DNA from: Ramlibacter sp.
GTDB taxonomy: Bacteria > Pseudomonadota > Gammaproteobacteria > Burkholderiales > Burkholderiaceae_C
Length of the DNA stretch: 64,000 nucleotides
Assembly (NCBI GenBank): GCA_016713005.1
Contig: JADJPY010000008.1
Span: 1 to 64,000, forward strand
Direction: 5' to 3'
The notes under the pieces were generated by a model, which had not been told where the DNA came from, did not search any database, and saw nothing but the letters and a program-made list of their open reading frames with translations. Position numbers and translations under genes: made by a program. Of this stretch, positions 4,218-62,162 are shown one piece after another; the stretch's first letter is position 1, and every line of letters begins with the position of its first letter.

Positions 4218-7200
4218 TCAATGAAAGTCCCGGCTCCGGTTGCCCAGCCGGCCGAGCCGGCCCAGCAGGGGCGTCAGGTCGGTGAGCCGCGCGGCCACCA
4301 GATGGCAGACCTGGCCACCGCTGTCCACATCGCGCTGCCAGGTGCCGTGCACGGCCAGCAGGCGCGCGCGAAGCAGGGGCTGGCGCTGGGCCTCGCGCAC
4401 ATGCCGCCACACGATCACGTTGACGGGGCCGGTCTCGTCCTCCAGCGTCACAAAGATGGTGCCCTTGGCCGTCTGGGGCTGCTGGCGCACCGTCACGATG
4501 CCGCAGGCGGCGGCTCGGCGGCCATCGGGCAGCGCAGACAGCTCCTGCGCATTCAGGTAGCCCGTGCGGGCCAGCCGTGCGCGCAACAGGGCCAGCGGAT
4601 GGCGACGCAGCGTCAGGCCGGTGGCGGCGTAGTCAAACAGGATCTCCTCGCCCTCGGGCGCGGGGGGCAGCGCCAGCGCGGCCTCGTGCACGGGCGCGCC
4701 GCGCAGCAGCGCGGGCGCGCGGTGGCGCGCGGCGGCGTCCCACACCTGCTGGCGCCGGTGGCCCGAGAGGCTGTGCAGCGCGTCGGCGGCGGCCAGCGCA
4801 TTCAGGTCTTTCACGTCCAGCTGCGCGCGCAGGGACAGGTCTTCGGTGCTGGCAAAGGGCGCCTGCGCGCGCGCAGCCACGATGCGGCTGGCGCCCTCGC
4901 CGCTCAGCCCGCCCACCATGTGCAGGCCCAGCCGGACTGCTGCGTCCGGGGCCACGTCAGGCCCCGAATAATTGGAATCTGACCCCAATTTCTCCAGTGT
5001 GCAGTCGGTGTGGCTGTGGGAGACGTCGGCGGGCAGCACTTGCACGCCATGGCGACGGGCGTCCTGCACCAGCTGGGCGGGCGGGTAAAAGCCCATGGGC
5101 TGGGAGTTGAGCATCGCGGCCAGGAAGCATGCGGGCTCGTGGCACTTGAGCCAGCTGCTGGCGTAGGCCAGCAGCGCAAAGCTGTAGGCGTGGCTCTCGG
5201 GGAAGCCGTATTCGCCAAAGCCCAGGATCTGCCCGAATATGCGCCGCGCAAACGCATCGGTATAGCCGCGGGCCAGCATGCCGCTGATGAGGGGCGCTTC
5301 GAACCTGTGCACCCCGCCCTTGCGCTTCCAGGCGGCCATGGCACGGCGCAGCGCATCGGCCTGCGTGGCACTGAAGCCGGCGGCCACCATCGAAATCTGC
5401 ATCACCTGCTCCTGGAAGATGGGCACGCCCAGCGTGCGCGCCAGCGCCTCTTTCAGGCGGGGTTCGTCGCCGTCGTGGCTCGAGCGCTCGTACTCGATGG
5501 GCAGGCCGCGGGCGACGCGCTCGCGCGCCTTCAGGTAGGGGTGCACCATGCCGCCGGCAATCGGCCCGGGCCGCACGATGGCGACCTCGATCACCAGGTC
5601 GTAGAAGCGCCGCGGCCGCAGGCGCGGCAGCATGGACATCTGCGCCCGGCTCTCGATCTGGAACACGCCCACCGTGTCGGCGCGGCGGATCATCTCGTAG
5701 GTGGCCGGATCCTCCTGCGGGATGTCACGCAGCTGCATGTCCGTGCCGCGCAGCGCGTTGCGCAGGTGCAGGCAGCGGCGGATGGCGGTGAGCATGCCCA
5801 GCGCCAGCACGTCGACCTTGAGCAGCCCCAGGCTTTCCAGGTCGTCCTTGTCCCACTGGATGACGGAGCGGTCTTTCATGGCCGCGTTCTCCACCGGCAC
5901 CAGCCGGGTCAGGCGGGTTTGCGTCAGCACAAAGCCGCCCACATGCTGGCTCAGGTGGCGCGGAAAGCCGATCAGCTCGCGCGTGAGGCCCAGCCACAGC
6001 CGCGCGGTGTGCACGGGAAGCGCCACGCCGCAGCGCTGCGCCAATTCGTCCAGCCGGTCGTCGGCCAGGCCCTTGTCAAACCACTGGTGCTCGCCGGCAA
6101 AAGCCTCCACCAGCGGCACGGGCACGCCCAGCGCCTTGCCCACGTCGCGGATGGCGCTGCGGGTGCGGTAGCAGGTGACAACGGCGGCAATGGCGGCGCG
6201 CTCGCGGCCGTACTTGGCGTAGATGTACTGGATGACTTCCTCGCGGCGCTCGTGCTCGAAATCCACGTCGATGTCGGGCGGTTCGTTGCGCCGCTCCAGG
6301 CTGATGAAGCGCTCCAGCAGCGGGTGCGAGTGCATGGGGTCGGCCGCGGTGATGCCAAGGCACCAGCACACCACCGAGTTGGCCGCCGAGCCGCGACCCT
6401 GGCAGAGGATGCCTTTGCCCTCGGCAAAGCGCACGATGTCGTCCACGGTCAGGAAAAACATCTCGTAGCGGCATTCGGCAATGAGCCGCAGCTCCTTGAC
6501 CAGGTAGCGGCCGATGCGCATGGGCAGGCCCTGCGGGTAACGCCGCGCCGCGCCTTGCAGCGTGCGCCGGCGCAGCGCCTGCGCGGGGCTCAGGCCTTCG
6601 GGCACCGTCTCCAGCGGGTAGTTGTAGCGCACCTCGTCCAGGCTGAAGCGGCAGCGCCGCGCCACCTCCAGCGTGGCGGCCAGCAGCGCCGGCGGATAGA
6701 TGTGGGCCAGGCGCGCGCGCAGCCGCAGGTGGCGCTCGGCGTTGGGCTGCAAACCGAAACCGCAGTCGGCCACCGGCCGGCCCAGACGCACGGCGGTGAT
6801 CACGTCCTGCAGCGGCTTGCGCGAGCGCACGTGCATGTGCACGTCGCCCGCGGCCACCAGCGGCACGCCGGTTTGTGCGCCCAGGGCCTGCAGCGTGGCC
6901 AGCCAGGCCTCGTCGTCGGGGCCGTGCAGCAACTCGGCCCCCAGCCAGATATCCAGGGGAAATATGGCCCTGAGCCCCGCCAGAATTGATCGGATAGCTA
7001 TCAAATTAATAGCATCCTGAGCACGACGCTCAGGGACGAAGAGCAGCTCGCATCCGCCCAGGCGGTGCAGCGCGGCCTCCGCGCCGGGCACGCGGTAGTC
7101 GCCCTTGGGCGCGTTGCGCCGCGCCGCGGTGATGAACTCGCACAGGTTGCCCCAGCCGTCCAGGTCGCGCGCCAGCGCCACCAGGCGAAAGCCCTCAAAC

Positions 7201-7445
7201 GCGAACTCCGCGCCGGCCAGCAGCTTCAGGCCCAGCTCGCGCGCCTTCATGTGCGCGCGCACCAGCCCGGCGACCGAGCATTCGTCGGTGATGGCCAGCG
7301 CCTCGTAGCCCAGATCAAAGGCGCGCTGCACCAGTTCTTCGGGGTGCGAGGCGCCCCGCTGGAAGCTGAAGTTGCTTAAAGCGTGCAGCTCGGCATAGCT
7401 GGGGAGGTGACCGGGCAGATAACCGGGCAGGGCCGACTCAGGCAT
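4218..7445 (-). CDS. dnaE2: Error-prone DNA polymerase III alpha-type subunit DnaE2 (ImuC)
   Basis: PHP domain N-terminus (SYAELHALSNFSFQRGAS), about 1075 aa, last gene of the imuA-imuB-dnaE2 cassette. Start was set at MPESALPGY (ATG 7443-7445). Confidence 0.9.
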   Translation of the reverse strand: MPESALPGYLPGHLPSYAELHALSNFSFQRGASHPEELVQRAFDLGYEALAITDECSVAGLVRAHMKARELGLKLLAGAEFAFEGFRLVALARDLDGWGNLCEFITAARRNAPKGDYRVPGAEAALHRLGGCELLFVPERRAQDAINLIAIRSILAGLRAIFPLDIWLGAELLHGPDDEAWLATLQALGAQTGVPLVAAGDVHMHVRSRKPLQDVITAVRLGRPVADCGFGLQPNAERHLRLRARLAHIYPPALLAATLEVARRCRFSLDEVRYNYPLETVPEGLSPAQALRRRTLQGAARRYPQGLPMRIGRYLVKELRLIAECRYEMFFLTVDDIVRFAEGKGILCQGRGSAANSVVCWCLGITAADPMHSHPLLERFISLERRNEPPDIDVDFEHERREEVIQYIYAKYGRERAAIAAVVTCYRTRSAIRDVGKALGVPVPLVEAFAGEHQWFDKGLADDRLDELAQRCGVALPVHTARLWLGLTRELIGFPRHLSQHVGGFVLTQTRLTRLVPVENAAMKDRSVIQWDKDDLESLGLLKVDVLALGMLTAIRRCLHLRNALRGTDMQLRDIPQEDPATYEMIRRADTVGVFQIESRAQMSMLPRLRPRRFYDLVIEVAIVRPGPIAGGMVHPYLKARERVARGLPIEYERSSHDGDEPRLKEALARTLGVPIFQEQVMQISMVAAGFSATQADALRRAMAAWKRKGGVHRFEAPLISGMLARGYTDAFARRIFGQILGFGEYGFPESHAYSFALLAYASSWLKCHEPACFLAAMLNSQPMGFYPPAQLVQDARRHGVQVLPADVSHSHTDCTLEKLGSDSNYSGPDVAPDAAVRLGLHMVGGLSGEGASRIVAARAQAPFASTEDLSLRAQLDVKDLNALAAADALHSLSGHRRQQVWDAAARHRAPALLRGAPVHEAALALPPAPEGEEILFDYAATGLTLRRHPLALLRARLARTGYLNAQELSALPDGRRAAACGIVTVRQQPQTAKGTIFVTLEDETGPVNVIVWRHVREAQRQPLLRARLLAVHGTWQRDVDSGGQVCHLVAARLTDLTPLLGRLGRLGNRSRDFH
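6981..7013. repeat. AT-rich small palindromic element (compound: CAGAATTGATCGGATAGC + GCTATCAAATTAATAGC), in-frame inside dnaE2
   Basis: Read directly. Family consensus GCTATC-W6-GTAGC. Confidence 0.7.
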
Positions 7446-8739
7446 AGAACCCCTGCAGGAACCATCGCCCCGACCCGCCACCGGCGAGCGCCGGCCGCTC
7501 GCGGTACACCCACACCAGCCCGGCCTGCGGGCTGTGGGCGATGAAATAGTCGCGCAGCGCCGGGCCGCCACCCTCCCACCAGCCGGCCTCGATGCGGTGC
7601 AGGCGCGTCAGCCGGCGCAGCGGGCCACCGTACTGCGGCACGTCCCGCTCCACCGCCAGCGCCAGCGGCTCGCGCAGCAGCCAGGTGGGGTACAGGACGT
7701 CCGCGGCTGGAGGGCTGGCGTGCGCGGCAGAAGGAGTGGCGCCCCCCTCGCCTGCGCCCTGCCCGCGCGCGCTCACCCAGCGCTGCATGGCCTCGGGCCG
7801 GTGGTCGGCCTGCGCCACGGGTACCTGCACCTGGTCTTCCCCCAGCCGCGCACTCAGGCGCTCCACCAGTTCGTGCAGGCGCTCGCCGGGGCGGTTGTCC
7901 TCGGGCAGGAAGCTGCGGCTTGCGCCCAGCCAGGGCGCGCTGTCGGTGAGGCGCAGGCGCAAGTGGCTGGCGGGCGCGGCCAGGCGCACGCGCGCGAGCT
8001 GCTCGCCCACCAGCCGGCGCAGGTGGGCCATGTCCTGCGCGGGCTGCGCCGTGCGCACCGTCAGTGATTCGTGGGGCGGCAGCGGCACGCCATCCAGGCG
8101 CTTGAGGTCCAGCGTCCACTGCAACTGCAGCGCCAGCGCGCCACGGTCGCGCGCGCGCAGCCAGGCCTGCAGTTGCAGCAGCAGGCGCTGCGCGGCCCAC
8201 ATCAGCCCGGGCGCAGTGGTGGCCAGCGCAGGCAGCTCCAGGCTGGCGTCAAACACCTCAGGCAGGGTCAGCCAGACGCAGGCGGCGGGCCGCTCGCCAT
8301 AGGCCGTGTCCAGCGCCTCCAGCAGGGGCGCGCCAAAGCGCCGCGCCACACCCCCGCGCGGCAGCGCGCGCAGCTGGCCCCACTGGCGGCAACCGGTGCG
8401 CGCCAGCGTGTCCAGCCAGGGCTGCGCGGCCGTCAGCGTGGACAGCGGCAGCCCGTCGGGCACGGCGGGCGGCACAGCCAGCCCCTGGCGCTGCAGGCGC
8501 AGGAGCGCGATTGCTATCAAATATGTAGCGGCTCGTGCATATTCCACGCGGGCTGCGGCATGATTTGGCCTGAAAAGACGGCGCAGCAGGCGATCTGGCC
8601 CGCCCCACAGCCGGTGCGAGGCCGAGACCTCCAGCACCAGTGCCTCGTCCACCTGCGCCACCCGCGGCGTGAACTGCAGCGCGCGCCAGCCCCAGGCGGT
8701 GTGCTCGCCCTCAGGTGGCAACAGCGCGATCCAGTGCAT
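7438..8739 (-). CDS. imuB: ImuB, Y-family DNA polymerase-like protein of the mutagenesis cassette
   Basis: Starts MHWIALLPPEGEH... as typical for ImuB. It overlaps the dnaE2 start by 8 nt and the imuA end by 29 nt, which indicates an operon. Confidence 0.85.
   Translation of the reverse strand: MHWIALLPPEGEHTAWGWRALQFTPRVAQVDEALVLEVSASHRLWGGPDRLLRRLFRPNHAAARVEYARAATYLIAIALLRLQRQGLAVPPAVPDGLPLSTLTAAQPWLDTLARTGCRQWGQLRALPRGGVARRFGAPLLEALDTAYGERPAACVWLTLPEVFDASLELPALATTAPGLMWAAQRLLLQLQAWLRARDRGALALQLQWTLDLKRLDGVPLPPHESLTVRTAQPAQDMAHLRRLVGEQLARVRLAAPASHLRLRLTDSAPWLGASRSFLPEDNRPGERLHELVERLSARLGEDQVQVPVAQADHRPEAMQRWVSARGQGAGEGGATPSAAHASPPAADVLYPTWLLREPLALAVERDVPQYGGPLRRLTRLHRIEAGWWEGGGPALRDYFIAHSPQAGLVWVYRERPALAGGGSGRWFLQGFYA
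8511..8531. repeat. Same element family (TTGCTATCAAATATGTAGCGG), in-frame inside imuB
   Basis: Read directly. Confidence 0.7.
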
Positions 8740-9487
8740 GACCGGCCTCCCGGGATGCGGGGGCGCCCGCCCGCGAGGGCGTGGCAGGGGGCCGCGCCAT
8801 GCCGCCCCGGCGTGTGGCCAGCAGCGCCGCCAGCCGCGCTGGGTGGGCGGGCAGCACCAGCGGCTCATCCAGCGGTGGCCCACGCCGCTTGAGGATGCGC
8901 AGCTGCAGCGTGTCGGTGCCCTGCAGCAGCAGGCGAAGCCGCGCGGGCGAGGATTCGTGCTGCGCCGCGGGCGTGCGGAACACCACCAGCAGCCGCCGGT
9001 GCTGCTGCGCGGCCAGGTGCAGCCGGCGCAGCGCATCCGCACGGGCCTGGGGCAGCCAGGCCAGCACGGCCACCCCATCGGCGCAGCGCAGCGCCTGCTC
9101 GGTGGCCCACAGGCCGGCAGCGGGCTGGCCCGCGCGCACCCACAGCAGCCGCCCCGGCGGCAGGCCCTGCGCAGCCAGCGCAGGGCCGAACGGCACCTGC
9201 GGCGCATCCACCAGCACCACCGGCCCGGGCTGCGCCCGCACCAGCTGCGCCAGCGAGGGCAACAGCAACTGCCACACGTGCAGACCGGGCCGGGCCTGCA
9301 GCACCTCCACCAGGCCGTCCAGCGGCCAGCCGCCACCGGGCAACTGCGCGTCCAGCGCGGCGTGGCCGGTGGACACCTGCGCCGACACCGGCGCGCACGC
9401 CTCCCCGCGCCAGACATGGGGCAAGTCATCTGGCAAGGCGGCGGGCAGGCGAACGGGCGTCACAACGGATGAGAAAAGGAGCGTCAA
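8711..9487 (-). CDS. imuA: ImuA (SulA/RecA-like SOS-induced protein)
   Basis: LPHVWRG...GHAALDAQLPGGGWP motif of the ImuA family. The start codon is TTG at 9485-9487 or a downstream GTG. A LexA box lies immediately upstream. Confidence 0.8.
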   Translation of the reverse strand: MTLLFSSVVTPVRLPAALPDDLPHVWRGEACAPVSAQVSTGHAALDAQLPGGGWPLDGLVEVLQARPGLHVWQLLLPSLAQLVRAQPGPVVLVDAPQVPFGPALAAQGLPPGRLLWVRAGQPAAGLWATEQALRCADGVAVLAWLPQARADALRRLHLAAQQHRRLLVVFRTPAAQHESSPARLRLLLQGTDTLQLRILKRRGPPLDEPLVLPAHPARLAALLATRRGGMARPPATPSRAGAPASREAGHALDRAVAT

Positions 9488-9489
9488 AA

Positions 9490-9509
9490 TACTGTTTGTT
9501 TATACAGTA
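9490..9509 (-). promoter_or_regulatory. LexA SOS box (TACTGTTTGTTTATACAGTA, i.e. CTGT-N8-ACAG) in the imuA promoter
   Basis: Perfect proteobacterial LexA consensus, read directly, 3 nt upstream of the imuA start. Confidence 0.9.
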
Positions 9510-9893: not shown

Positions 9894-10263
9894 ATGAGCC
9901 AGGCGGTGTTGGAGCGCCGTGCCGTGGTGATGTTGGTCACGTGTTGAATTTCCACAACGTATTTGCAACACGGATTGTCGTGTGTGTTGACAGCGCAGTA
10001 AAGACTCTTTACAGTCCAACCCGTCGCAGCCGGATCGTCCGGCAGCAAGACATTTTTCAAGGCCAGCAGGACACATCGTGAGAACCGCCAACGCCCCGAA
10101 ACAAAGCCAGTTCCCAACGGGACGGCTTGCGTTCGTGCGCACCCGTGCGTTCACGTCGTTGCCGCAGATTTGCGCGCATGCCCTGGGCATGAATGGCTAT
10201 GAGGATCGACCCCCACCGGGCGAGGAGTGCGTGTAAGCGCAGCCCTCCACTCTCTGACACCAG

Positions 10264-10301
10264 AGGCCCGGTTTCGAAAGGAACCGGGCCTTTTTGTTTT
10301 T
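10264..10301 (+). terminator. Rho-independent terminator: 10-bp perfect stem AGGCCCGGTT/AACCGGGCCT, 8-nt loop, then TTTTTGTTTTT
   Basis: Read directly. It lies on the plus strand in a 470-bp non-coding spacer. Confidence 0.7.
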
Positions 10302-10397
10302 CCGCGCGGCCATCGAGCCGCCACCGGCACTGTGCCGGATTGTTCGTTAACAACTTGCCGCAAGCGCGCCACCGGTACTGGCCGGAGGGCGCCTTGC

Positions 10398-10444
10398 AAA
10401 AAAAGAAAAAGCGGATGCGCGGGTGCACAACACCCGCCATCCGC
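10398..10444 (-). terminator. Rho-independent terminator on the minus strand: imperfect GC hairpin (GCGGATGCGCGGGTG...CACCCGCCATCCGC) followed, on the minus strand, by U7CU5
   Basis: Read directly. It faces the plus-strand terminator at 10264-10301. Confidence 0.55.
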
Positions 10445-10593
10445 CACTTCGGGTGTGCCTATGCACCACCGCCAGCCAAGCCCAAGGTCCGGGCCGGCGG
10501 GATGTGCACGGGGTCGCACCCCATGTGCAGCGAGAAAGCCCGTCGGCTCGCCGGCGCTCGCGCATGGACACAGCCGAAGTGGAAATTGGAGAA

Positions 10594-10671
10594 GTCGTGT
10601 TCGTCTAGCTGGCCCAGGACACCGGTCTTTCATACCGGAGATCGCGGGTTCGAGTCCCGCACACGACGCCA
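10594..10671 (+). tRNA. tRNA-Glu (anticodon UUC), CCA encoded
   Basis: Manual fold: acceptor GTCGTGT/ACACGAC, anticodon loop CTTTCAT, T-loop TTCGAGT. Close to the E. coli tRNA-Glu sequence. Confidence 0.85.
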
Positions 10672-10760
10672 GAACCCAAGCCTTGCCGCGCTCACGCGGC
10701 GGGCGTAAACCGGCCGCAAAGATTGGGCGGCTCCGGAACCCGTCACCGGAAACCTTTTTT

Positions 10761-10836
10761 GCTCCGTTAACTCAGTGGCCAGAGTGCCGGCCTGTCTAGC
10801 CGGAGGCCGCGGGTTCGACTCCCGCACGGGGCGCCA
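10761..10836 (+). tRNA. tRNA-Asp (anticodon GUC), CCA encoded; unusual U37
   Basis: Acceptor GCTCCGT/ACGGGGC, anticodon stem CCGGC/GCCGG, loop CTGTCTA, T-loop TTCGACT. Confidence 0.8.
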
Positions 10837-10837
10837 G

Positions 10838-10925
10838 GGGTTGCGAGCAGCATTGGCGACTGCACCGGAATGTAAATCCGGCGCCCCAAGGGGCTTACGG
10901 GGTTCGACTCCCTGGCAACCCACCA
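10838..10925 (+). tRNA. tRNA-Tyr (anticodon GUA), type II long variable arm, CCA encoded
   Basis: Acceptor GGGTTGC/GCAACCC, anticodon loop ATGTAAA, 16-nt variable arm. It starts 1 nt after the tRNA-Asp CCA. Confidence 0.85.
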
Positions 10926-10932
10926 AATTTTT

Positions 10933-11008
10933 GCCCCGTTGGCTCAGTGGCGAGAGCACCGGTCTACGAAACCGGGGGTCGCACGTTCAAGTCGTGCACG
11001 GGGTACCA
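10933..11008 (+). tRNA. tRNA-Arg (anticodon ACG), CCA encoded
   Basis: Acceptor GCCCCGT/ACGGGGT (G1·U72 wobble), anticodon loop CTACGAA, T-loop TTCAAGT. Confidence 0.85.
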
Positions 11009-11015
11009 GTTTCGT

Positions 11016-11090
11016 TCTCGCGTAGCTCAGTGGCAGAGCAGCGTCTTGATAAGGCGCAGGCCGGTGGATCGTTCCCATCCGCGAGGACCC
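11016..11090 (+). tRNA. tRNA-Ile (anticodon GAU)-like; non-canonical (U1·G72, T-loop ATCGTTC with A54/U58 swapped, 3' end ACCC with no CCA); may be a pseudo-tRNA or an unusual tRNA
   Basis: Acceptor TCTCGCG/CGCGAGG, anticodon stem-loop GCGTC-TTGATAA-GGCGC. The D-arm is canonical; the T-arm is GGTGG-ATCGTTC-CCATC. Confidence 0.6.
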
Positions 11091-11100
11091 GTCAACACAA

Positions 11101-11176
11101 GCCGCGGTAGCTCAGACGGTAGAGCGCAGGACTGAAATTCCTGGCGGCGGAGGTTCAACTCCTCCCCGTGGCACCA
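11101..11176 (+). tRNA. tRNA-Phe (anticodon GAA), CCA encoded
   Basis: Acceptor GCCGCGG/CCGTGGC, anticodon loop CTGAAAT, T-arm GGAGG-TTCAACT-CCTCC. It is followed by a T6 run. Confidence 0.85.
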
Positions 11177-11206
11177 CTTTTTTCAACCCAACCAAGGAGG
11201 CGCGCC

Positions 11207-11380
11207 ATGCGCAAACAGTCCAAGCTGCGCGTGCTCCGTCCGCGCAACCCCATCGTCCAGGCCCTGGTCCGCCGCATTGCGGGCTTTGCCGTGGGCAGGC
11301 ACCGCGACGCCCGCAAGAACTCGCGCCGCAGCGAGGCGAAAGACCTCGACCAGCGCGTGCGCGAGATCGGCGAATGGTGA
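11207..11380 (+). CDS. Small Arg/Lys-rich hypothetical protein (57 aa) embedded between tRNA-Phe and tRNA-His
   Basis: Strong Shine-Dalgarno AAGGAGG at 11194-11200, 6 nt before ATG 11207. Sequence: MRKQSKLRVLRPRNPIVQALVRRIAGFAVGRHRDARKNSRRSEAKDLDQRVREIGEW. No recognised homology. Confidence 0.5.
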   Translation: MRKQSKLRVLRPRNPIVQALVRRIAGFAVGRHRDARKNSRRSEAKDLDQRVREIGEW

Positions 11381-11390
11381 AGCCATTGAT

Positions 11391-11466
11391 GGTGGCCATG
11401 GCGCAGCGGCGGCGCACCGGGTTGTGACCCCGGGGGTCGCGGGTTCGAATCCCGCTGGCCACCCCA
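11391..11466 (+). tRNA. tRNA-His (anticodon GUG) with genomically encoded G(-1), CCA encoded
   Basis: 8-bp acceptor G-1 GTGGCCA / TGGCCAC C73, anticodon loop TTGTGAC, T-loop TTCGAAT. Confidence 0.9.
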
Positions 11467-11480
11467 AGACTCCAGACAAC

Positions 11481-11567
11481 TCCCCCGTGGCGGAATTGGC
11501 AGACGCACCGGTCTCAGAAACCGCGGCCCGCACGGGCATGTCCGTTCGACTCGGGCCGGGGGAACCA
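11481..11567 (+). tRNA. tRNA-Leu (anticodon CAG), type II; U1-A72 and a C27·C43 mismatch
   Basis: Acceptor TCCCCCG/CGGGGGA, D-arm GCG-GAATTGGCAGA-CGC as in E. coli tRNA-Leu, anticodon loop CTCAGAA, long variable arm GCCCG-CA-CGGGC. Confidence 0.8.
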
Positions 11568-11576
11568 TTTCGATGA

Positions 11577-11652
11577 TGGGGTGTGGTCGAGAGGCCTCAG
11601 ACAGGCGGCTTTGAACCGTCGCACGCTGGTTCGAGTCCAGCCACCCCTGCCA
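11577..11652 (+). tRNA. tRNA-Gln (anticodon UUG); 1:72 is a U·U mismatch
   Basis: Acceptor TGGGGTG/CACCCCT, close to E. coli tRNA-Gln TGGGGTA/TACCCCA. Anticodon stem-loop GGCGG-CTTTGAA-CCGTC, T-loop TTCGAGT. Confidence 0.8.
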
Positions 11653-11682
11653 TTTGATACAGGCCACGAAAGGAGGCCATCC

Positions 11683-12258: not shown

Positions 12259-12394
12259 AGGTTCAGCCGCCAACGAATCTGCCGCGAAAAGCAAGACGCT
12301 CACAGGTTGGGGGTAAGACCCCGCCGGTGTGCGGTACCGGGCTGCGCCCGTCGCCGCCGCACATGCCGCTCTTGCCGGAAACGGTGGATACCAG

Positions 12395-12451
12395 GGTGCC
12401 GATGGGGATATGCCCTCGACGGCCCGGGTTCGACTCCCGGCGGCACCACCA
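12395..12451 (+). ncRNA. tRNA-like mini-helix: 7-bp acceptor (GGTGCCG/CGGCACC) + short hairpin + canonical T-arm (CCGGG-TTCGACT-CCCGG) + ACCA; a tRNA 3' fragment lacking D and anticodon arms
   Basis: Manual fold. Only 22 nt lie between the acceptor 5' strand and the T-stem. The 3' CCA overlaps the start of the following Lys-like tRNA. Confidence 0.45.
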
Positions 12452-14872: not shown

Positions 14873-14875
14873 CCC

Positions 14876-18204: not shown

Positions 18205-18210
18205 TTGGGC

Positions 18211-18666: not shown

Positions 18667-18700
18667 AATCGTCATCCAGCCCCCGCCAATGCTTGCTGAC

Positions 18701-22070: not shown

Positions 22071-22077
22071 CCGGTGT

Positions 22078-54766: not shown

Positions 54767-55602
54767 GTCCGTGCCATGACTTCCACGCCGATGCCCCGGT
54801 AGCCCAGGAATCGGCAGGCCTGGTTGAACATGGGCTCCCCGCTGACACGGTACTGCTGCTGCGATCCGTCTGGCCTGGTGCGGCTGAACAGGAAATCCAG
54901 GAAAGGCTGGCGTGCGGTGATCATCGCCTGCAGGGCCTCGCGCTGGGCGCGGTTCCAGCCCGCGCCTTCGACGACCACATCGCCAACGGGCACGGTGTTG
55001 TCGTCGAAGGCATTCACCTGCAGCCCCAGCATCTCCAGCACTGGCCCAGAGACCCGGGTAAAGGCGCCCGCCTCGTCCTGCTCCCAGTACCAGTCCGACG
55101 CCAGCTCGGTCAGGCTGCGGTAGCGTGCCTCGCTCTCGCGCAGCTCGGCGGTGCGCTCCTGCACGACCTGCTCCAGCCGCTTGTTGTAGTCGTCCAGCTT
55201 GCGGTACAGCAGGCGCACTTCCAGCATGTTGCGGATGCGCGTCTTGACTTCCACCAGGTCAAACGGCTTGCTGATGAAGTCGCGCGCACCCGCCTGCAGC
55301 GCACGAAGCTTGTGGCCGGGCTGGGCCGTCAGCACGATGACGGGCATGTAGCGGTCGACCAGACTGGTCTTCAGGCCCTGCATCACCTGGAAGCCGTCCA
55401 TCCCCGGCATCTGCAGGTCCAGCAGGATCAGTTCGTACGGATCCCTGCGGTGCAGCGCGCACACCTCCTGCGGGTTCATGGTGGAGCTCACCCGGGTGTA
55501 ACCCGCCTCCTGCAACAGTTGGCTCAGCAGGGCGATGTTGGCCTCCTGGTCATCGACGACGAGGATGCGTGCCTGCAGGATGTCTTCTTCGGTTAGTGTC
55601 AT
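54763..55602 (-). CDS. Response regulator (REC) with C-terminal PAS domain
   Basis: VVDDQ...D(54)...KP motifs. Confidence 0.8.
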   Translation of the reverse strand: MTLTEEDILQARILVVDDQEANIALLSQLLQEAGYTRVSSTMNPQEVCALHRRDPYELILLDLQMPGMDGFQVMQGLKTSLVDRYMPVIVLTAQPGHKLRALQAGARDFISKPFDLVEVKTRIRNMLEVRLLYRKLDDYNKRLEQVVQERTAELRESEARYRSLTELASDWYWEQDEAGAFTRVSGPVLEMLGLQVNAFDDNTVPVGDVVVEGAGWNRAQREALQAMITARQPFLDFLFSRTRPDGSQQQYRVSGEPMFNQACRFLGYRGIGVEVMART

Positions 55603-57305
55603 GTGATGTCTTCGGTGGTTGCTTCCTGGTCCCTGTCCTGGGCATGTTTCAGTGCTGCGTCCAGTGCCGCCATGAACTGGCTGACCTTGATGGGTTTGGT
55701 GAGGTAGTTGAAGAAGCCCGCTTCCAGGCCTTTTTCGATGTCGCGCGGCACCGCGTTGGCACTCAGCGCCAGGATGGGGATGTGCGCAGTCTGGGGGTCG
55801 GCACGCAGGATCTTCATGGCCTCGATGCCGCTGATGCCGGGCAGATGGATGTCCATCAGGATCACGTCGGGCAGGTACGCCCGCGCGAATTCGATGCCCA
55901 CCTGCCCATCGGCGGCGGTCAGCAGGCGCAGGTCGGAGCGGCGTGCGATCAGTTGCTCCACCAGCTCCAGGTTGGCCGGGTTGTCTTCCACGTACAGCAG
56001 GGTGCGCAGAGGCGCACCTGCCGCCACCGGTGCCTGCGGGAGCACCAGCCCGGCTTCCGGAGCAGCAAGTTGCGGCGCCGTGGTCAGGGCCAGCTCGACC
56101 CAGAACAGGCTGCCCACGCCCACCGTGCTTTCCACGCCGATCATGCCCTCCATCAGTTTCAGCAGCTTGCGGGTCACCACCAGACCGATGCCGGTGCCTT
56201 CCTCGGCGCTGGCTTCCTTGCCCATGCGGTTGAAGGGCTCGAACAGCTGGTTGAGCTGGTCCGGCGACATACCCTCACCGGTGTCACGCACGCTGATGCG
56301 CACGGCGTCCGGCGGGCTCAGCGCGCATTCCACCGTGACGGTGCCCCCGGAGCGGTTGTATTTGACGGCGTTGAACAGCAGGTTGATCAGCACCTGCTTG
56401 AGCCGCGTGCGGTCGGCCTGCACATACCAGGGCGTGGGCAGGTGCGGAAAGCTCATGGCGATGCCGCGCTTGTGGGCCTGCGGCTCGATCATGGCGCGGC
56501 ACTCCAACAAGACCTCCACCAGCGACACCGGCTCGCGCGAGACGATGACCCTGCCCGACTCGATCAACGCCAGGTCCAGCACTTCGTTGATGAGTTCCAG
56601 CAGGTACCAGCCGGCCTTGAGGATCTGCTCCAGGTTGCGCCGCTGCCCGGGCGTGGGCACCGGCGTTCCGGTTTCCATGAGCTGCGCAAAGCCCAGGATG
56701 GCGTTGAGCGGCGTGCGCAGCTCATGGCTCATGCTGGACAGGAAATCCGTCTTGGCGCGGTTGGCCTCTTCGGCCGCAGCCATGGCGGCATTGAGCTCCA
56801 GCTCAACTTGCTTGCGCACCGAGTTGTCGGTGCCGATCAGCAGGTAACCGATGATGTCGGAATACGCGTCGCGCAGCGCGGTAATGGACACGATCGCCGG
56901 GAAGCGGCTGCCGTCCTTGCAGATGTAGGTCAGTTCGTAGATGTCTTCAATGCCGCGCGAGGCCTTGAAGGCCAGCGCCTCAAAGCCCGGGGTGATCGGC
57001 GTTCCCAATTCAAGGCTGAGCGCCTCGGCACGGGCCATCACCTCCTGCGGATCGTGTATGTCGCTGGGGTTGATGCGGTTGACCACCTCGGCGGCCAGGT
57101 AGCCCAGCATGCGTTCCGCCCCCACATTGAAGAGCTGGATGATCCCTTTTTCGTCCGTCGCGATGATCGAGAAATTGGCGCTGGTCAGGATCGCGTTCTG
57201 CAAGGCGCCCGTCTTGAGCAATGCCTGCTGGCGGTGGACCTCAGTGATGCCGTCTGCGGGATGCGCATCGTTGCCGCTGTCCGGCAAGGGATTCTTCCTG
57301 GACAT
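55599..57305 (-). CDS. Hybrid sensor histidine kinase (PAS-HisKA-HATPase-REC)
   Basis: MSHELRTPLN H-box, HATPase_c, C-terminal REC. Start at MSRKNPLP. Confidence 0.85.
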   Translation of the reverse strand: MSRKNPLPDSGNDAHPADGITEVHRQQALLKTGALQNAILTSANFSIIATDEKGIIQLFNVGAERMLGYLAAEVVNRINPSDIHDPQEVMARAEALSLELGTPITPGFEALAFKASRGIEDIYELTYICKDGSRFPAIVSITALRDAYSDIIGYLLIGTDNSVRKQVELELNAAMAAAEEANRAKTDFLSSMSHELRTPLNAILGFAQLMETGTPVPTPGQRRNLEQILKAGWYLLELINEVLDLALIESGRVIVSREPVSLVEVLLECRAMIEPQAHKRGIAMSFPHLPTPWYVQADRTRLKQVLINLLFNAVKYNRSGGTVTVECALSPPDAVRISVRDTGEGMSPDQLNQLFEPFNRMGKEASAEEGTGIGLVVTRKLLKLMEGMIGVESTVGVGSLFWVELALTTAPQLAAPEAGLVLPQAPVAAGAPLRTLLYVEDNPANLELVEQLIARRSDLRLLTAADGQVGIEFARAYLPDVILMDIHLPGISGIEAMKILRADPQTAHIPILALSANAVPRDIEKGLEAGFFNYLTKPIKVSQFMAALDAALKHAQDRDQEATTEDIT

Positions 57306-57437
57306 GCGCGGGTTCCCGGTAAAGCACTGAGCCTGTGCGCTGCCGCCGGCGCTGTCCGTTCGGTAGCGCACAGACGGGGACACTTTCGCCCTTCGCCAGA
57401 GCCAGCGGAGCCCCGCACCCCGGTGTATAACCGGCTC

Positions 57438-58721
57438 ATGCTTAATGGCATCTCCATCACGCCCCCGATGAGCCCGGCCCGAGCGCGCGAGATCGCCGCC
57501 TCGCTGGACCTGCGCGCCCTGCCCGCCGACTTCTACACCAACCCCTATCCGGTCTACGCGCAACTGCGCCAGGCCGAGCCGGTGCGCCAGATGCCCGACG
57601 GCAGCTATTTCCTGACGCGCTACGCCGATCTGGTGGCCGTGTACCGCGATGCACAGACCTTCAGCTCGGACAAGAAGGTGGAGTTCGCACCGAAATACGG
57701 GGGCTCTCCCCTGTTCGAGCACCACACCACCAGTCTGGTGTTCAACGATCCGCCGCTGCACACACGGGTGCGCAAGCTCATCATGGGCGCGCTCACGCGC
57801 CGGGCGATCGCCGACATGGAGCCCGGGCTTGTCACGCTGGTGGACAGCCTGCTGGACACCATCGAGGCGAAAGGCGGGGGCGACCTGATCGAGGACTTTG
57901 CCTCGGCCATCCCCGTGGAGATCATCGGCAACCTGCTGGGCGTGCCGCACGCCGACCGCGGCCCACTGCGCGGCTGGTCGCTCGCCATCCTGGGTGCGCT
58001 GGAACCCAGGCTGACACCGCAGCAGGAAGCCGCCGGCAACCAGAGCGTGACCGAAATGCTGGCCTACCTGCGCGAGCTGGTGCGCGAGCGCCGTGCCCGC
58101 CCCGGCGACCCGGAGCACGACGTGCTGACGCGCCTCATCCAGGGCGAAGGCAGCGACAGGCTGAGCGAAGTGGAGCTGCTGCAGAACTGCATCTTCATCC
58201 TCAACGCCGGCCACGAGACCACCACCAACCTGATTGGCAATGCACTGGTCTGCCTGCAGGAGTGGCCCGCCGAGAAGGCGGATTTGCTATCAAAAATGGA
58301 GCGGCTCAGCGAGGATCCACGGGGGCTGGAGGCAGTTTTGAACCCTGCGGTGGACGAATTCCTGCGTTTTGAGTCGTCCAACCAGCTGGGCAACCGCCGC
58401 GCCACGCGGGCGTGCGAGGTCGGCGGCGTTCCGCTGGAATCGGGCGCGCTGGTGACGCTTGGCATCGGCGCGGCCAACCGCGATCCGGCGCAGTTTGCCA
58501 ACCCGGACGTGCTGGACCTGTCGCGTCCGGACTGTCGCCATCTGGCTTTCGGCTTTGGCATCCACCAGTGTGCGGGCCTGAGCCTGGCGCGGCTGGAGGG
58601 GCGCATTGCCATCGGACGCTTTCTGGCTCGCTTTCCGCAGTACCGGTTGAGCGAGAGCCCCGTGCGCGGCGGTCGCGCGCGTTTCAGGGGTTTCTTGCGT
58701 GCGCCCTTCGGCGTGGCCTAA
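57438..58721 (+). CDS. Cytochrome P450
   Basis: Heme-binding loop FGFGIHQCAGLSLAR and I-helix NAGHETT. Confidence 0.9.
   Translation: MLNGISITPPMSPARAREIAASLDLRALPADFYTNPYPVYAQLRQAEPVRQMPDGSYFLTRYADLVAVYRDAQTFSSDKKVEFAPKYGGSPLFEHHTTSLVFNDPPLHTRVRKLIMGALTRRAIADMEPGLVTLVDSLLDTIEAKGGGDLIEDFASAIPVEIIGNLLGVPHADRGPLRGWSLAILGALEPRLTPQQEAAGNQSVTEMLAYLRELVRERRARPGDPEHDVLTRLIQGEGSDRLSEVELLQNCIFILNAGHETTTNLIGNALVCLQEWPAEKADLLSKMERLSEDPRGLEAVLNPAVDEFLRFESSNQLGNRRATRACEVGGVPLESGALVTLGIGAANRDPAQFANPDVLDLSRPDCRHLAFGFGIHQCAGLSLARLEGRIAIGRFLARFPQYRLSESPVRGGRARFRGFLRAPFGVA
58284..58304. repeat. Same family (TTGCTATCAAAAATGGAGCGG), in-frame inside the P450 gene
   Basis: Read directly. Confidence 0.65.
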
Positions 58722-58750
58722 ACTGCAACGCACAGGCCAGGAGACAACCC

Positions 58751-59113
58751 ATGGACACCAGCACCACCGCCGATCCCAACCCCAATCCCGCCCCGGGCGC
58801 CGCCGTCGACCCGCGCAGCTTCACCAGCTTCGCGCAGTTCTATCCGTTCTACCTGGGCGAGCACCGCAACACCACCTGCCGGCGGCTGCACTTTGTGGGC
58901 TCGTCGCTGGGTCTGGTGTTCCTGGCCACGATGTTGGCCACGGGCAACCTGCTGTGGCTGCTGGCGGGCCTGCTGTGCGGCTACGCCTTTGCCTGGATCG
59001 GGCACTTTGGCTTCGAGAAGAACAAACCCGCGAGCTTCAAGCGCCCGCTGTACAGCTTCATGGGCGACTGGGTGATGTACAAGGACATCTGGACGGGCAG
59101 GATCCCGTTCTGA
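58751..59113 (+). CDS. DUF962 (Mpo1-like) membrane protein
   Basis: SD AGGAGA. FAQFYPFYLGEHRN motif. Confidence 0.65.
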   Translation: MDTSTTADPNPNPAPGAAVDPRSFTSFAQFYPFYLGEHRNTTCRRLHFVGSSLGLVFLATMLATGNLLWLLAGLLCGYAFAWIGHFGFEKNKPASFKRPLYSFMGDWVMYKDIWTGRIPF

Positions 59114-59115
59114 AA

Positions 59116-59137
59116 CCGCTATCTTTTTTGTAGCGCC
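59116..59137. repeat. Same family (CCGCTATCTTTTTTGTAGCGCC) between DUF962 and yihY; carries the yihY TAG stop
   Basis: Read directly. Confidence 0.7.
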
Positions 59138-60312
59138 TCAGCAAGCCGGGACGCGGGCTGGAGGCCGTTTTTCCATATAAAGTCGGTTGATTCCGAGGGT
59201 GCCAGCAGCAGCCGCTGCGCCAGCGCCGACAGCGGGGCCTGTTCTGCGTCGGCCAGCAGCACCAGGCGGCCGTCTTCGAGACGCCCCACCCAGTCGATGG
59301 CGGCCATCGACTCCACCACCGGCTCCAGCTCCAGCGTGTCCACGTGCAGCTGGCGCGCCAGCAAGGCCATGTCCGTTCCCGCCTGACCCTGCTGCCTCGC
59401 GGCGTGCAGCGCCTGCAGCACCTCCACGCCCAGCTGGAACTGCCAGCCCGCGTAGCCGCCGCGGCGCGCCACGCCGCCCAGCAGGCTGGGCAGGTAGGCG
59501 GCGATCACCGCGCCCAGCAGCAGCACCACCCACACCACGTAGATCCACAGCAGCAGGATGGGCACCGACGCAAACGCACCGTAGATGGCCGAGTAGGTGG
59601 GCACCGCCTTCAGGTACGCGGCCAGCCCGGCCTTGGCCAGCTCCAGCCCGACCGCCACAAACACACCGCCCGCGAGCGCGTGGCGCCACTTCACCAGCGT
59701 GTTGGGCACGTAGTGGTACAGCGCGGCGACGCCGGCAGACATCATCGCAAACTCGATCACATTCAGCAGCGCCTTGACGCTGCCCGGCATGGCACTCACC
59801 ACCCCGCGCGAGGCCGACAGCGCGTAGGACGTCATCGCCAGGCTGGCGGCCAGCAGCAACGGCCCCAGCGTCAGCACGGCCCAGTACATCAGCACACGCT
59901 GCGCCAGCGGCCGCGGGCGGCGCACCCGCCAGATGGCGTTGAGCGTGCGGTCAATCGTCAGGATCAGCGAGATCGCCGTCACCAGCAGGAAGCCCACGCC
60001 CACCAGCCCGAGCCGGCTGGCCTTGGTGGCGAATTGCGTGAGGTAGCCCATCACCTGCTTGGCGATGGCCTCGGGGATCAGGCTCTCGGCCAGCCACTGC
60101 TGCAGCGTGCCCTGCAGCTTGCCGAACATCGGGAAGGCGCTGAACACCGCCAGGATCACCGCGAACAGCGGCACCATGGAGATGACGGTGGTGAAGGTCA
60201 GGCTGCTGGCCGTGTTGCCCAGCCGGTCCTCGCGAAACCGCTCCAGCAGCGTGGCACCCGTCGCGCGCCAGGGAAACGTCTTCAGGGCCTGCAGCGCGTC
60301 GTCCAGTTTCAT
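59119..60312 (-). CDS. YihY/BrkB-family membrane protein
   Basis: MKLDDALQALKTFPW... with six TM helices. Confidence 0.75.
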   Translation of the reverse strand: MKLDDALQALKTFPWRATGATLLERFREDRLGNTASSLTFTTVISMVPLFAVILAVFSAFPMFGKLQGTLQQWLAESLIPEAIAKQVMGYLTQFATKASRLGLVGVGFLLVTAISLILTIDRTLNAIWRVRRPRPLAQRVLMYWAVLTLGPLLLAASLAMTSYALSASRGVVSAMPGSVKALLNVIEFAMMSAGVAALYHYVPNTLVKWRHALAGGVFVAVGLELAKAGLAAYLKAVPTYSAIYGAFASVPILLLWIYVVWVVLLLGAVIAAYLPSLLGGVARRGGYAGWQFQLGVEVLQALHAARQQGQAGTDMALLARQLHVDTLELEPVVESMAAIDWVGRLEDGRLVLLADAEQAPLSALAQRLLLAPSESTDFIWKNGLQPASRLAEALQKR

Positions 60313-60741: not shown

Positions 60742-62149
60742 CACCCTGCGCCAGATCGTGGGCGCACCCCATGTATTGACGCACGACGACCCCGGCACGG
60801 ACCTCACCGCCTGGGAGCAGGACTGGCGCCGCCGCGTGCGCGGCCGCGCGCTGGCCGTCGTGCGCCCCGGCAACACGGAGGAAGTGGCCGCTGTCGTGCG
60901 GGCCTGTGCCGCCGCCGGCGCCCCGCTGGTGCCCCAGGGCGGCAACACCGGGCTGGTGGTGGGCTCCACGCCCGACGCCAGCGGCACGCAGGTGGTGCTG
61001 AGCCTGACCCGGATGAACCGCGTGCGCGCCCTGGACGCCGCCAACCTCACGCTGACGGTGGAGGCCGGTTGCATCCTGCAAACACTGCAGGAGGCTGCCG
61101 CCAAAGACGGCTTCCTGTTCCCGCTGAGCCTGGCGGCCGAGGGCAGCTGCACCATCGGCGGCAACCTGGCCACCAACGCCGGCGGCACGCAGGTGGTGCG
61201 CTACGGCAACGCGCGCGACCTCTGCCTGGGGCTGGAAGTCGTCACGGCGCAGGGCGAGGTGTGGCACGGCCTCACCGGCCTGCGCAAGGACAACACCGGC
61301 TACGACCTGCGTGACCTCTTCATCGGCAGCGAGGGCACGCTGGGTGTGATCACCGCCGCCACCATGAAGCTGTACCCCCTGCCCGCGGCCACCCTCTCCG
61401 CCTGGGCGGCCGTGCCCACGCTGGACGCCGCCGTATCCCTGTTGGGCCTGGCGCACCGCCACCTGGGCGCCGGTCTCACCGGCTTTGAGGTGATGGGCCA
61501 GTTTGCGCTGGACCTGGTGGCCAGACACTTTGCGCAGCTGCGCGTGCCGCTGTACCAGGGCACGCCCTACTGCGTGCTGCTGGAGGCGTCCGACAGCGAA
61601 TCCGAAGACCACGCGCGCGGCCGATTCGAGGCGCTGCTGGAAGCGGCCATGGAGCAGGGCTGCATCAGCGACGCGGTGATCCCCGAGAGCCTGGCCCAGG
61701 CGCAGCAGCTGTGGCACATCCGCGAGAGCATCCCGCTGGCGCAGGCCGAAGAAGGCCTGAACATCAAGCACGACATCTCCATCCCCGTGTCGCGCATCCC
61801 CGCGTTCTGCGCGCACACCGATGCGCTGCTGGCGCAGCAGATCCCCGGCGTGCGGCTGGTCAACTTTGGCCACCTGGGCGACGGCAACCTGCACTACAAC
61901 GTGCAGGCGCCCGAGGGCGGCGACGCGGCGGCCTTCCTGCGCGATCAGGAGGAGCGCGTCAACACGCTGGTGTTTGATGCCGTGCGGGCGTTCGACGGCT
62001 CCATCTCGGCCGAACACGGCGTGGGTGACCTGAAAGCCGCGAAGCTGCCGGCCTACAAATCGGCCGTGGCCCTGCAGATGATGCGCGCGATCAAGCAGGC
62101 GCTGGACCCGCAGAACATCATGAACCCGGGTCGGGTGCTACAGAATTGA
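60716..62149 (+). CDS. FAD-linked oxidase (GlcD / D-lactate / D-2-hydroxyacid dehydrogenase family)
   Basis: FAD-binding PCMH domain plus C-terminal FAD-oxidase domain. Confidence 0.85.
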   Translation: MPPLSPLPDTLRQIVGAPHVLTHDDPGTDLTAWEQDWRRRVRGRALAVVRPGNTEEVAAVVRACAAAGAPLVPQGGNTGLVVGSTPDASGTQVVLSLTRMNRVRALDAANLTLTVEAGCILQTLQEAAAKDGFLFPLSLAAEGSCTIGGNLATNAGGTQVVRYGNARDLCLGLEVVTAQGEVWHGLTGLRKDNTGYDLRDLFIGSEGTLGVITAATMKLYPLPAATLSAWAAVPTLDAAVSLLGLAHRHLGAGLTGFEVMGQFALDLVARHFAQLRVPLYQGTPYCVLLEASDSESEDHARGRFEALLEAAMEQGCISDAVIPESLAQAQQLWHIRESIPLAQAEEGLNIKHDISIPVSRIPAFCAHTDALLAQQIPGVRLVNFGHLGDGNLHYNVQAPEGGDAAAFLRDQEERVNTLVFDAVRAFDGSISAEHGVGDLKAAKLPAYKSAVALQMMRAIKQALDPQNIMNPGRVLQN

Positions 62150-62162
62150 TAGCGGCTTAGCG
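62137..62162. repeat. Same family (GCTACAGAATTGATAGCGGCTTAGCG); carries the FAD-oxidase TGA stop
   Basis: Read directly. Confidence 0.65.

Follow-up and report, generated by a model that had tools for sequence, protein, structure and literature searches.

Small dispersed repeats in bacterial chromosomes are usually explained either as selfish insertions or as RNA hairpins. Repetitive extragenic palindromes (REPs) are G+C-rich hairpins of 20-40 bp with a GTAG or CGTC head, strictly extragenic, often paired and linked to REP-associated tyrosine transposases (RAYTs). DNA uptake sequences (DUS) and uptake signal sequences (USS) are thought to accumulate in place, by point mutation together with drive. 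A further family, BRE, is a repeat of 75-91 bp found in Bordetella and in Comamonadaceae (Polaromonas JS666, Delftia, Acidovorax), 69% G+C, often tandem and mostly intergenic, with some copies in coding sequences (Hot et al. 2011, PMC3110155). Here we describe a unit of about 57 bp which appears to be laid over existing codons, found in a stretch of 64,000 nucleotides from Ramlibacter sp. (assembly GCA_016713005.1, contig JADJPY010000008.1, positions 1 to 64,000; hereafter the window). The family is real, about 57 bp long, widespread in Comamonadaceae, located at gene ends and, where it lies inside genes, co-linear with alleles that lack the motif. We found no published description of the 57-66 bp unit in Rfam or in the full-text literature on repeats, Comamonadaceae or Ramlibacter, and the Comamonadaceae genera that carry the motif are not mentioned in the account of GTAG-tagged REPs by Di Nocera et al. 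(2013).

A preliminary description of the window had listed ten or more AT-rich palindromes of about 21 bp, GCTATC-W6-GTAGC, scattered in both orientations and belonging to no standard annotation class. Orientation and lack of annotation are upheld, as is the existence of a repeat family beyond chance: the exact pattern occurs three times in the window as against 0.00 times in dinucleotide-preserving shuffles, and nine times against 0.02 expected when up to two mismatches are allowed; the simpler GCTA-N9-TAGC is likewise found nine times (0.10 expected). The listed copies at 8511, 18701, 22078, 38648, 46529, 58284, 59116 and 62137 are genuine members, and the 18-mer GCTATCTTTTTTGTAGCG is indeed identical at 38650 and 59118 (in the copies designated E5 and E8 below). 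The copy placed at 6981 also belongs to the family, but is weaker, with its palindrome at 6997-7013. The supposed expanded copy at 28143 does not belong: it is a different hairpin, AAATCTCC...GGAGATTT, from which the downstream blocks are absent and which gives no profile match. A palindrome at 33849-33894, inside gcvP and with a weak full-length match, had been missed, and the G+C content of the window is about 67% rather than the 69% given. As for the hairpin at 28153-28197, it lies between the genes for electron transfer flavoprotein-ubiquinone oxidoreductase and an NMT1-like protein and reads GCTAT-AAATCTCC-TGATCCCCA-GGGAGATTT-GTAGC, that is, a separate hairpin of 8-9 bp with the same flanking pentamers as the family palindrome; it may derive from that palindrome through enlargement of the centre, or the likeness may be coincidental.

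The size originally proposed is too small. In 8-9 of the 9 GCTA-N9-TAGC cases the palindrome is the 5' part of a longer unit of about 57-66 bp, in which a fixed GGGCTGGAGGCC block stands 20 nt past the palindrome, together with an ATTT tract. Across the family the layout is (T)TGCTAT, about seven A/T-rich bases, ATAGC, a genome-specific block of some 9-11 bases, about ten variable bases, GGGCTGGAGGCC and nATTT, and the Comamonadaceae consensus is TTGCTATtaAtTtaATAGCTGCTtGCGC, about 11 variable bases and GGGCTGGAGGCcgATTTg. The window version, in its common orientation, is TTGCTATC-W6-GTAGC, GGCTCAGCRAG, about six variable bases, ACGGGGGCTGGAGGCC and GATTTT; the GTAG head, present in most window copies, is a Ramlibacter peculiarity, the family-wide consensus being ATAGC. 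A profile built from the window copies recovers eight full-length members with 42-61 bits (E2 to E9) plus the weaker E1 and the gcvP copy at 33849-33894. In 50 copies that do not match the pattern used for the genome scan below, the information content is about 54 bits, with the same profile and a sharp 5' edge, and in the consensus alignment the flanks of the unit carry no information.

Scanning one genome per species with the pattern TTGCTA-N10-AGC-N20-GGGCTGRAGSC places the unit in at least 116 contigs, nearly all of them from Comamonadaceae among the matches listed; carriers listed include Polaromonas, Rhodoferax, Curvibacter, Acidovorax, Comamonas, Diaphorobacter, Giesbergeria, Ca. Aalborgicola and metagenome-assembled genomes (MAGs) labelled 'Burkholderiaceae' or 'Burkholderiales'. 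Within 0.97 Mb of Comamonadaceae loci there are 212 profile matches, or about one per 5-10 kb once seeded copies are discounted, and extrapolating from this density there are probably hundreds of copies per genome. Presence is patchy, with Ramlibacter sp. WS9 and about 70 other relatives lacking the unit: some 70 loci with a motif-free cytochrome P450 gene (379 kb) contain zero other family matches, and GCTA-N9-TAGC occurs at 1.3 per 100 kb in these loci as against 14 in the window and 18 in family-bearing loci. The WS9 assembly (GCA_003797765.1; locus L003 at 10001-11311 and 18114-19316, and locus L123) contains, in 30 kb, no family copies and zero GCTA-N9-TAGC, but its P450 gene and the tail of its BrkB gene keep same-length protein traces of the motif, the DNA traces being weak. 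This suggests lineage-specific loss of whatever maintains the motif.

Carriers also differ in the form that the unit takes. At low-information positions, copies from the same genome share 0.48 identity as against 0.39 between genomes (p = 2e-14), and the window's GGCTCAGCRAG, and the ACGG that precedes its GC box, are replaced by TGCTTGCGC and AAGG in genomes of the Polaromonas type. A search of plasmids and phages gave one plasmid match and no phage match, with a 69-nt BLAST query that is insensitive. Three loci from MAG records titled Candidatus Kapabacteria (L012), Asaia bogorensis (L029) and Synechococcus sp. (L077) carry typical Comamonadaceae motif copies, and these contigs are probably mis-binned or mislabelled.

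Pfam scans and translations place four window copies inside genes, namely dnaE2, imuB, gcvP and a cytochrome P450 gene. Copy E2 (8507-8587, forward strand; 58.5 bits), a full copy, is found within imuB, antisense to the gene and in frame, and encodes LLRRLFRPNHAAARVEYARAATYLIAIA. Among the orthologues, those of the window, L120 and L122 bear the motif, L121 has a weaker version, and L123 (that is, Ramlibacter sp. WS9) and L124 are motif-free. The interval from WGG to LLR is 38 codons in motif-bearing and motif-free alleles alike. What differs is the G+C content at third codon positions (GC3), which in the segment is 0.43-0.46 in motif-bearing alleles (0.46 in the window), in genes whose overall GC3 is 0.83-0.89, and 0.82-0.89 in motif-free alleles; a motif-bearing example thus reads GCT ACA TAT TTG ATA GCA against a motif-free GCC ACC TCG CTC ACG GCC. 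Among 26 diverse ImuB representatives the segment is near-identical in length (a few residues apart) and A.T..(L).A is conserved. The orthologous imuB copies differ in the middle block, where each shows the version of its own genome (GGCTCGTGC in the window, AGCTTGCGC in L122). The L121 allele is a mosaic, with the palindrome and the 3' blocks present and the ancestral PWAQG retained in the middle, and may represent stepwise build-up of the motif.

A similar picture is seen in dnaE2. Copy E1 (6943-7017, reverse strand), a weak full-length copy (nhmmer E 4e-5), lies in frame in the region of the PHP domain and encodes QDAINLIAIRSILAGLRAIFPLDIWL; L120 and L122 carry orthologous copies, and the KG.Y-to-G.EL segment of DnaE2 is 51 amino acids long both in the window and in the motif-free L124. 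The two genes are part of an imuA(?)-imuB-dnaE2 SOS mutagenesis cassette at 4218-9500 (reverse strand), whose in-frame motifs in imuB and dnaE2 are kept in three related metagenomic or MAG loci.

In the cytochrome P450 gene (57435-58721), copy E7 (58282-58361, forward strand) is a full copy, sense and in frame, encoding LLSKMERLSEDPRGLEAVLN. The P450 protein shows 100% identity to one recorded as 'MAG: cytochrome P450 [Ramlibacter sp.]'. The corresponding protein segment is 28-30 amino acids long in all 55 orthologues, 11 of which carry the DNA motif in the form TTG CTA TCA AAA.TG ... GGG CTG GAG GC..TT TTG; in WS9 the segment is equally long, ALLAKMESLSSDAAALEAAMS, but is written in GC-rich codons. 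The A+T content at third positions of the segment is 0.41 with the motif and 0.20 without it, and 0.14-0.16 in the flanks. The segment exceeds that of the closest solved P450s by 11 amino acids, an excess which predates the motif-bearing clade. A hybrid histidine kinase open reading frame (ORF), running from stop to stop at 55599-58286 on the reverse strand, overlaps the P450 gene (forward strand) by about 850 bp; the kinase start must lie well downstream of that of the longest ORF, which is a typical antisense-ORF artefact of high-GC DNA.

Two further copies overlie the ends of genes for which orthologues are available. E8 (59114-59194, forward strand), a full copy starting 1-3 nt past the stop codon of an Mpo1-like gene, is wholly contained in the C-terminal coding tail of a convergent BrkB/YihY gene; the tail LWKNG.LP.L.LRD.L* is conserved, being 3 amino acids longer in the window, with orthologous copies in L001 and L002 and a decayed trace in WS9. 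E6 (46526-46602, forward strand), the most diverged copy at 41.8 bits, starts 10 nt past the stop of an EamA gene and overlies the last transmembrane helix (LSSNYGLTPVFWTSFATSLIAT) of a convergent major facilitator superfamily (MFS) transporter of the PPP family. The terminal helix, ..YGL.SVFW.S.ATSLIATGCAF.VWR, is native to the protein, whose orthologues measure 387-420 amino acids compared with 402 here. The remaining intragenic copy, with the palindrome GCTACAAAAACGATAGC (33849-33894, forward strand; E 0.013), has a degenerate downstream part and is in frame in gcvP (ATKTIAV...). The glycine cleavage genes gcvT-gcvH-gcvP are preceded by an ordinary tandem glycine riboswitch with two aptamers (30829-31033). 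The peptide A-T-x-(L/T)-I-A, which is the translation of the reversed palindrome, recurs in ImuB, the MFS transporter and GcvP. In the five genes with motif-free orthologues for comparison (imuB, dnaE2, P450, the MFS transporter and the BrkB tail), it is mainly AT-rich codons and conservative replacements that make up the motif.

The other window copies are found at gene ends. E3 (18644-18725, reverse strand) is a full copy between a K+-channel gene on the forward strand, whose stop at 18664-18666 falls in the 3' end of the element, and a Ser/Thr kinase-Usp gene on the reverse strand. E4 (22075-22153, forward strand) is a full copy between a CMD-family gene on the forward strand, with its stop 5 nt upstream, and an EptA-like gene on the reverse strand, to which it supplies the last 17 or so codons and the TAG. 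E9 (62133-62211, forward strand), again a full copy, stands between a FAD-linked oxidase gene on the forward strand and a convergent malic-enzyme gene on the reverse strand, which stops at 62208. E5 (38647-38724, forward strand) is a full copy occupying the entire spacer between aroQ and a DsbA-like gene, both on the reverse strand and therefore antisense to it; the TAA of aroQ is at 38707-38709 and the ATG of the DsbA-like gene is 1 nt from TTGCTA. No other copy in the window is fully intergenic. The placement at convergent gene ends proposed in the preliminary description therefore applies to E3, E4, E6, E8 and E9, but not to E5, which is between co-directional genes, or to E1, E2, E7 and the gcvP copy (palindrome at 33853), which are intragenic. 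Some genes do end in the element, but of four stop codons said to be supplied by the element only two are found in the palindrome, the TGA of the FAD-linked oxidase and the TAG of yihY/BrkB (59119-59121, in GATAGC); that of the EptA-like gene is within E4 but 3' of the palindrome, and the TGA of the kinase is directly outside the edge of E3, abutting TTGCTA. E9 is missing at the orthologous gene end in L001-L003. In L001, a related Ramlibacter MAG, a ccdA-ccdB toxin-antitoxin pair (14797-15353) directly follows the FAD-linked oxidase gene, in the place that E9 and the malic-enzyme gene occupy in the window.

A wider survey of gene context covered 126 copies with enough flanking sequence, using heuristic GC3-based ORFs rather than annotated genes. 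A same-strand upstream gene stops at -32 to +15 of the 5' edge in 41 of the 126 copies, a convergent gene stops at +5 to +89 in 36, and only three are in spacers between divergent genes. Downstream starts concentrate at +54 to +59, which is 5-10 nt past GGAGGC, clear cases of GGAGGC followed by a start being those of threonine aldolase, a response regulator and a phosphoesterase; several opposite-strand genes begin a few bases from TTGCTA. The GGAGG block probably serves as a ribosome-binding site (Shine-Dalgarno sequence) for some downstream genes, and since the AT-rich box often contains stop codons, reading frames can end in it. Both the borrowed stop codons and the GGAGG look like secondary consequences of the element. 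Copies within long ORFs number 18 of 145, on both strands and in four reading frames; in the window four of the ten copies are inside genes and several others overlap coding tails. Orientation relative to local GC skew (119:92) gives no replication-strand bias. The earlier comparison of gene-end placement with that of REP-type repeats is borne out.

Rfam matched no element at the gathering threshold across the whole window, or with E up to 10 in 58250-59250. RNAalifold on both strands of 170 copies gave no consensus structure beyond a 3-bp trace of the palindrome, and comparison of all columns against all in the same copies revealed no Watson-Crick covariation or notable mutual information, even inside the palindrome, which implies that the conserved parts are the half-sites GCTAT and ATAGC rather than a stem. 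Single copies folded against shuffles have z-scores of about 0. Given these results, and the presence of copies in both orientations relative to genes, the motif acts at the DNA level and independently of orientation.

Several known types of site were compared with the unit and rejected. By eye, neither strand of the consensus fits a sigma-70 promoter, CTGGAGGCCGATTTG lacks the -12 GC of a sigma-54 site, and the consensus sequences for FliA, IHF, Fis, Fur and FNR do not fit. An intrinsic terminator is not supported either, only E8 folding in that way in a family that has no consensus hairpin and many antisense or intragenic copies; the Ramlibacter-type terminator hairpin, GGCTCAGC...GCTGGAGCC with a T-run, is not general across the family.

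Taken together, we interpret the palindromes as the 5' box of a double-stranded, DNA-level motif of about 57-66 bp which a directional process would build up and maintain in situ, a reading to which we give a probability of roughly 0.45. An ordinary mobile insertion, a recombinase site and a structured RNA all seem a poor fit for the unit. Copies would arise in place on sequences that already fit, not as inserted extra DNA; the peptide A-T-x-L-I-A, encodable as GCT ACn nnn TTG ATA GCA, would be an example of such a seed. The mosaic L121 allele, the recurrence of A-T-x-L-I-A seed sites and the unchanged lengths speak against insertion, and the near full-length genome-specific consensus points to some template copying. 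The directional force might be selection, favouring binding by a lineage-specific protein that recognises the pair of near-palindromic boxes, whose centres are about 34 bp apart; or it might be a molecular drive, for example a bias in DNA uptake or in short-patch copying from one copy to another. Once such a force is lost, as may have happened in Ramlibacter sp. WS9, AT-rich codons would give way again to GC-rich ones, with traces remaining in the protein sequence and, weakly, in the DNA. A bolder version, which we consider doubtful, is that a directional process writes a long (about 57 bp) genome 'signature' into intergenic DNA and, via synonymous and conservative substitutions, into genes, the candidates being a bias in uptake or in templated repair, or selection for a DNA-binding complex specific to the family.

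A number of observations weigh against construction in place by a directional process. Some 54 bits over about 57 bp far exceeds what one DNA-binding protein or known uptake receptor reads, and same-genome copies agree at about 45 positions, which looks more like template copying than independent convergence. No trans-acting factor was found, and we have seen no direct evidence for selection over recurrent conversion. Four-fold degenerate sites are unsaturated between clades (0.67, the expected value being 0.43), so the time available may have been too short for the P450 copy to be lost, which could explain part of its retention. The intergenic copies E5 and E9 could be insertions, and the gene context of the 126 surveyed copies rests on heuristic ORF calls. 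Finally, Comamonadaceae are not known to show natural competence with uptake specificity, and in the full-text literature we found no paper pairing uptake sequences with this family.

Among alternatives, the one we regard as possible, if rather unlikely, is that the unit is a selfish dispersed repeat which is spread and homogenised by short-patch ectopic gene conversion or templated repair and not by cut-and-paste; a nicking enzyme acting at the palindrome possibly starts the copying, with overlays surviving only where the resulting peptide is tolerated. Both the near full-length consensus within each genome and the finding that orthologous imuB copies carry their own genome's middle block would be expected under such a process, as would partial and mosaic copies, and conversion between anchored microhomologies would leave length unchanged as a matter of course. 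Seed sites are however only about 11/17 identical to the palindrome, too little for RecA-type homology, conversion tracts would blur a 5' edge that is in fact sharp, and neither the window nor the intervals between inverted pairs showed a candidate nuclease or transposase. A classical non-autonomous mobile element, of the REP/REPIN (paired REP), MITE (miniature inverted-repeat transposable element), Correia or Rickettsia palindromic element (RPE) type, inserting about 60 bp at gene ends and occasionally in frame, we judge distinctly improbable. The mobile mini-element suggested in the preliminary description would account for the high copy number, the sharp 5' boundary, placement at gene ends with depletion between divergent genes, the presence/absence difference at E9 and the 11 amino acids by which the P450 segment exceeds the closest solved structures. 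What it does not explain is the structure of the unit, whose 5' end (TTGCTAT...) and 3' end (...GGCCGATTT, with CGATTT) are unrelated and not inverted copies of each other, so that terminal inverted repeats are lacking, as is any flank signal for the target-site duplication expected of a MITE or Correia element. Nor does it explain length: wherever testable, motif-bearing and motif-free alleles are essentially the same length, and imuB, P450, dnaE2, the BrkB tail and the MFS tail, five gene overlays in all, agree within 3 amino acids with and without the motif, where a MITE or RPE would make the filled site longer by the whole element. A REP or REPIN is rejected for want of a conserved stem-loop with compensatory changes, of the GTAG/CGTC end (the family having ATAGC) and of strictly extragenic location. 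Doublets also seem to be lacking. Neighbouring copies are single, and for the most part point the same way and are widely spaced, with one close inverted pair as the exception: L004 has copies at 4709-4782 (forward) and 4977-5051 (reverse), 195 bp apart and 73% identical at normally variable positions, the sole REPIN-like pair, which may be a local inverted duplication. No transposase or integrase was found among about 50 window ORFs scanned with Pfam, and no RAYT was seen in these or in the ORFs between inverted pairs, which look like ordinary genes by eye, no whole genome having been searched. The single plasmid match and the zero phage matches also speak against mobility, with the insensitivity of the query noted above.

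An RNA-level element, be it an intrinsic or bidirectional terminator, a 3'-UTR (untranslated region) stabiliser or a small RNA, is very unlikely in our view. Most copies do follow directly after a stop codon in the same orientation, and some Ramlibacter copies such as E8 can form GCCUCAGC...GCUGGAGGC followed by a U-run, but the folding and covariation results are negative throughout, no Rfam family matches, and the copies point either way with respect to transcription, some of them lying antisense within genes; the termination module proposed earlier consequently finds no support. Least credible of all is the other early suggestion, to which we give almost no weight, of a tyrosine-recombinase core site or phage-integration target comparable to dif, att or dRS3. 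It drew on two short inverted arms around an A/T-rich spacer. A dif, att or attC core requires arms of 7-13 bp, an identical overlap of 6-8 bp and an integrase, whereas here the arms are conserved over only 5 bp, the spacer varies among copies without covariation, and there are probably hundreds of copies per genome. Moreover, the palindrome is always within a fixed asymmetric 57-bp unit, copies sit in essential-looking coding sequence, and the window contains neither an integrase nor a prophage junction; the search for an associated transposase or recombinase among the roughly 50 ORFs was negative.

Rare AT-rich codons are kept in genes with 83-89% GC3, and protein length is retained. If construction in place is correct, synonymous sites and protein tails throughout a major family of environmental bacteria are under a substantial force. 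Under the more doubtful genome-signature version, the unit would be a third uptake-sequence-like system, after those of Neisseriaceae and Pasteurellaceae, or else a new type of protein-recognition site spread over the whole chromosome. There are consequences for annotation, in that gene callers will misplace stops and starts at units and peptides encoded by the element, A-T-x-L-I-A among them, can turn up in proteins that are unrelated to one another, and the motif can expose errors in MAG binning. Gain and loss between relatives as close as the window MAG and Ramlibacter sp. WS9 provide a comparative route to any factor that reads or writes the motif.

Elsewhere in the window, ten tRNA genes (Glu, Asp, Tyr, Arg, Ile, Phe, His, Leu, Gln and Lys) lie within 2 kb at 10594-12522, followed by a gene for a Band7/SPFH-ClpP-like protease (12488-14872) and one for an RtcB RNA ligase (14873-16120). 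Such an array is atypical for a betaproteobacterial chromosome and may mark an island.

How, then, does the unit compare with described repeat systems? With BRE there is no relationship: the BRE sequence, TTTTTTGCCGCCGGGCGCCCAAGGCAAAAAGCCCCCTCGGGGGGCAGCAAGC..., is unrelated, and nhmmer in both directions gave no cross-match even at E 100. BRE copies are present in L116 (3912-4071, tandem), L034 (1076-1152) and L003 (4821-4876), and two distinct small-repeat families therefore coexist in Comamonadaceae. Neisseria dRS3 resembles the palindrome in having short terminal inverted repeats around a variable spacer and hundreds of copies, but it stands by itself as a 20-mer, found at the borders of mosaic elements and used by phages for integration, whereas the Comamonadaceae palindrome is one box of a fixed asymmetric unit. 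Mycobacterial interspersed repetitive units (MIRUs) are similarly intercistronic, 40-100 bp long and overlap the upstream stop and the downstream start region; they are, however, tandem (forming variable-number tandem repeats) and oriented with the operon, while the copies described here are single, in either orientation and also intragenic. Like the Rickettsia RPEs, the unit has in-frame copies in protein-coding genes that are retained in orthologues, but RPEs are palindromic throughout and add 30-50 residues, and the Comamonadaceae unit leaves gene length unchanged.

REPs, together with the bacterial interspersed mosaic elements (BIMEs) and REPINs, are also short, chromosomal and high in copy number, occur at 3' gene ends and in convergent spacers, and are rare between divergent genes, and the window copies even share the GTAG. 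Unlike REPs, the Comamonadaceae unit has no conserved hairpin, an ATAGC head, 12-40% of copies overlapping coding sequence, no doublets or RAYT that we could see, and the resemblance to REPs and MITEs is one of location only. The likeness to DUS and USS goes further. As with these, copies are numerous, lie in either orientation and cluster immediately downstream of genes, and are also found inside genes, without change in length and in frames whose peptides are tolerated; lineage 'dialects' exist; and the unit is confined to one bacterial family. The differences are those of scale and arrangement. DUS and USS have cores of 9-12 bp (about 30 bp for USS with flanks) at about one per kb, as compared with about 57 bp and one per 5-10 kb, and DUS often form inverted pairs acting as terminators, whereas the Comamonadaceae copies are single. 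By analogy, then, the unit appears closest in behaviour to DNA uptake sequences, though it is five times longer and ten times rarer.

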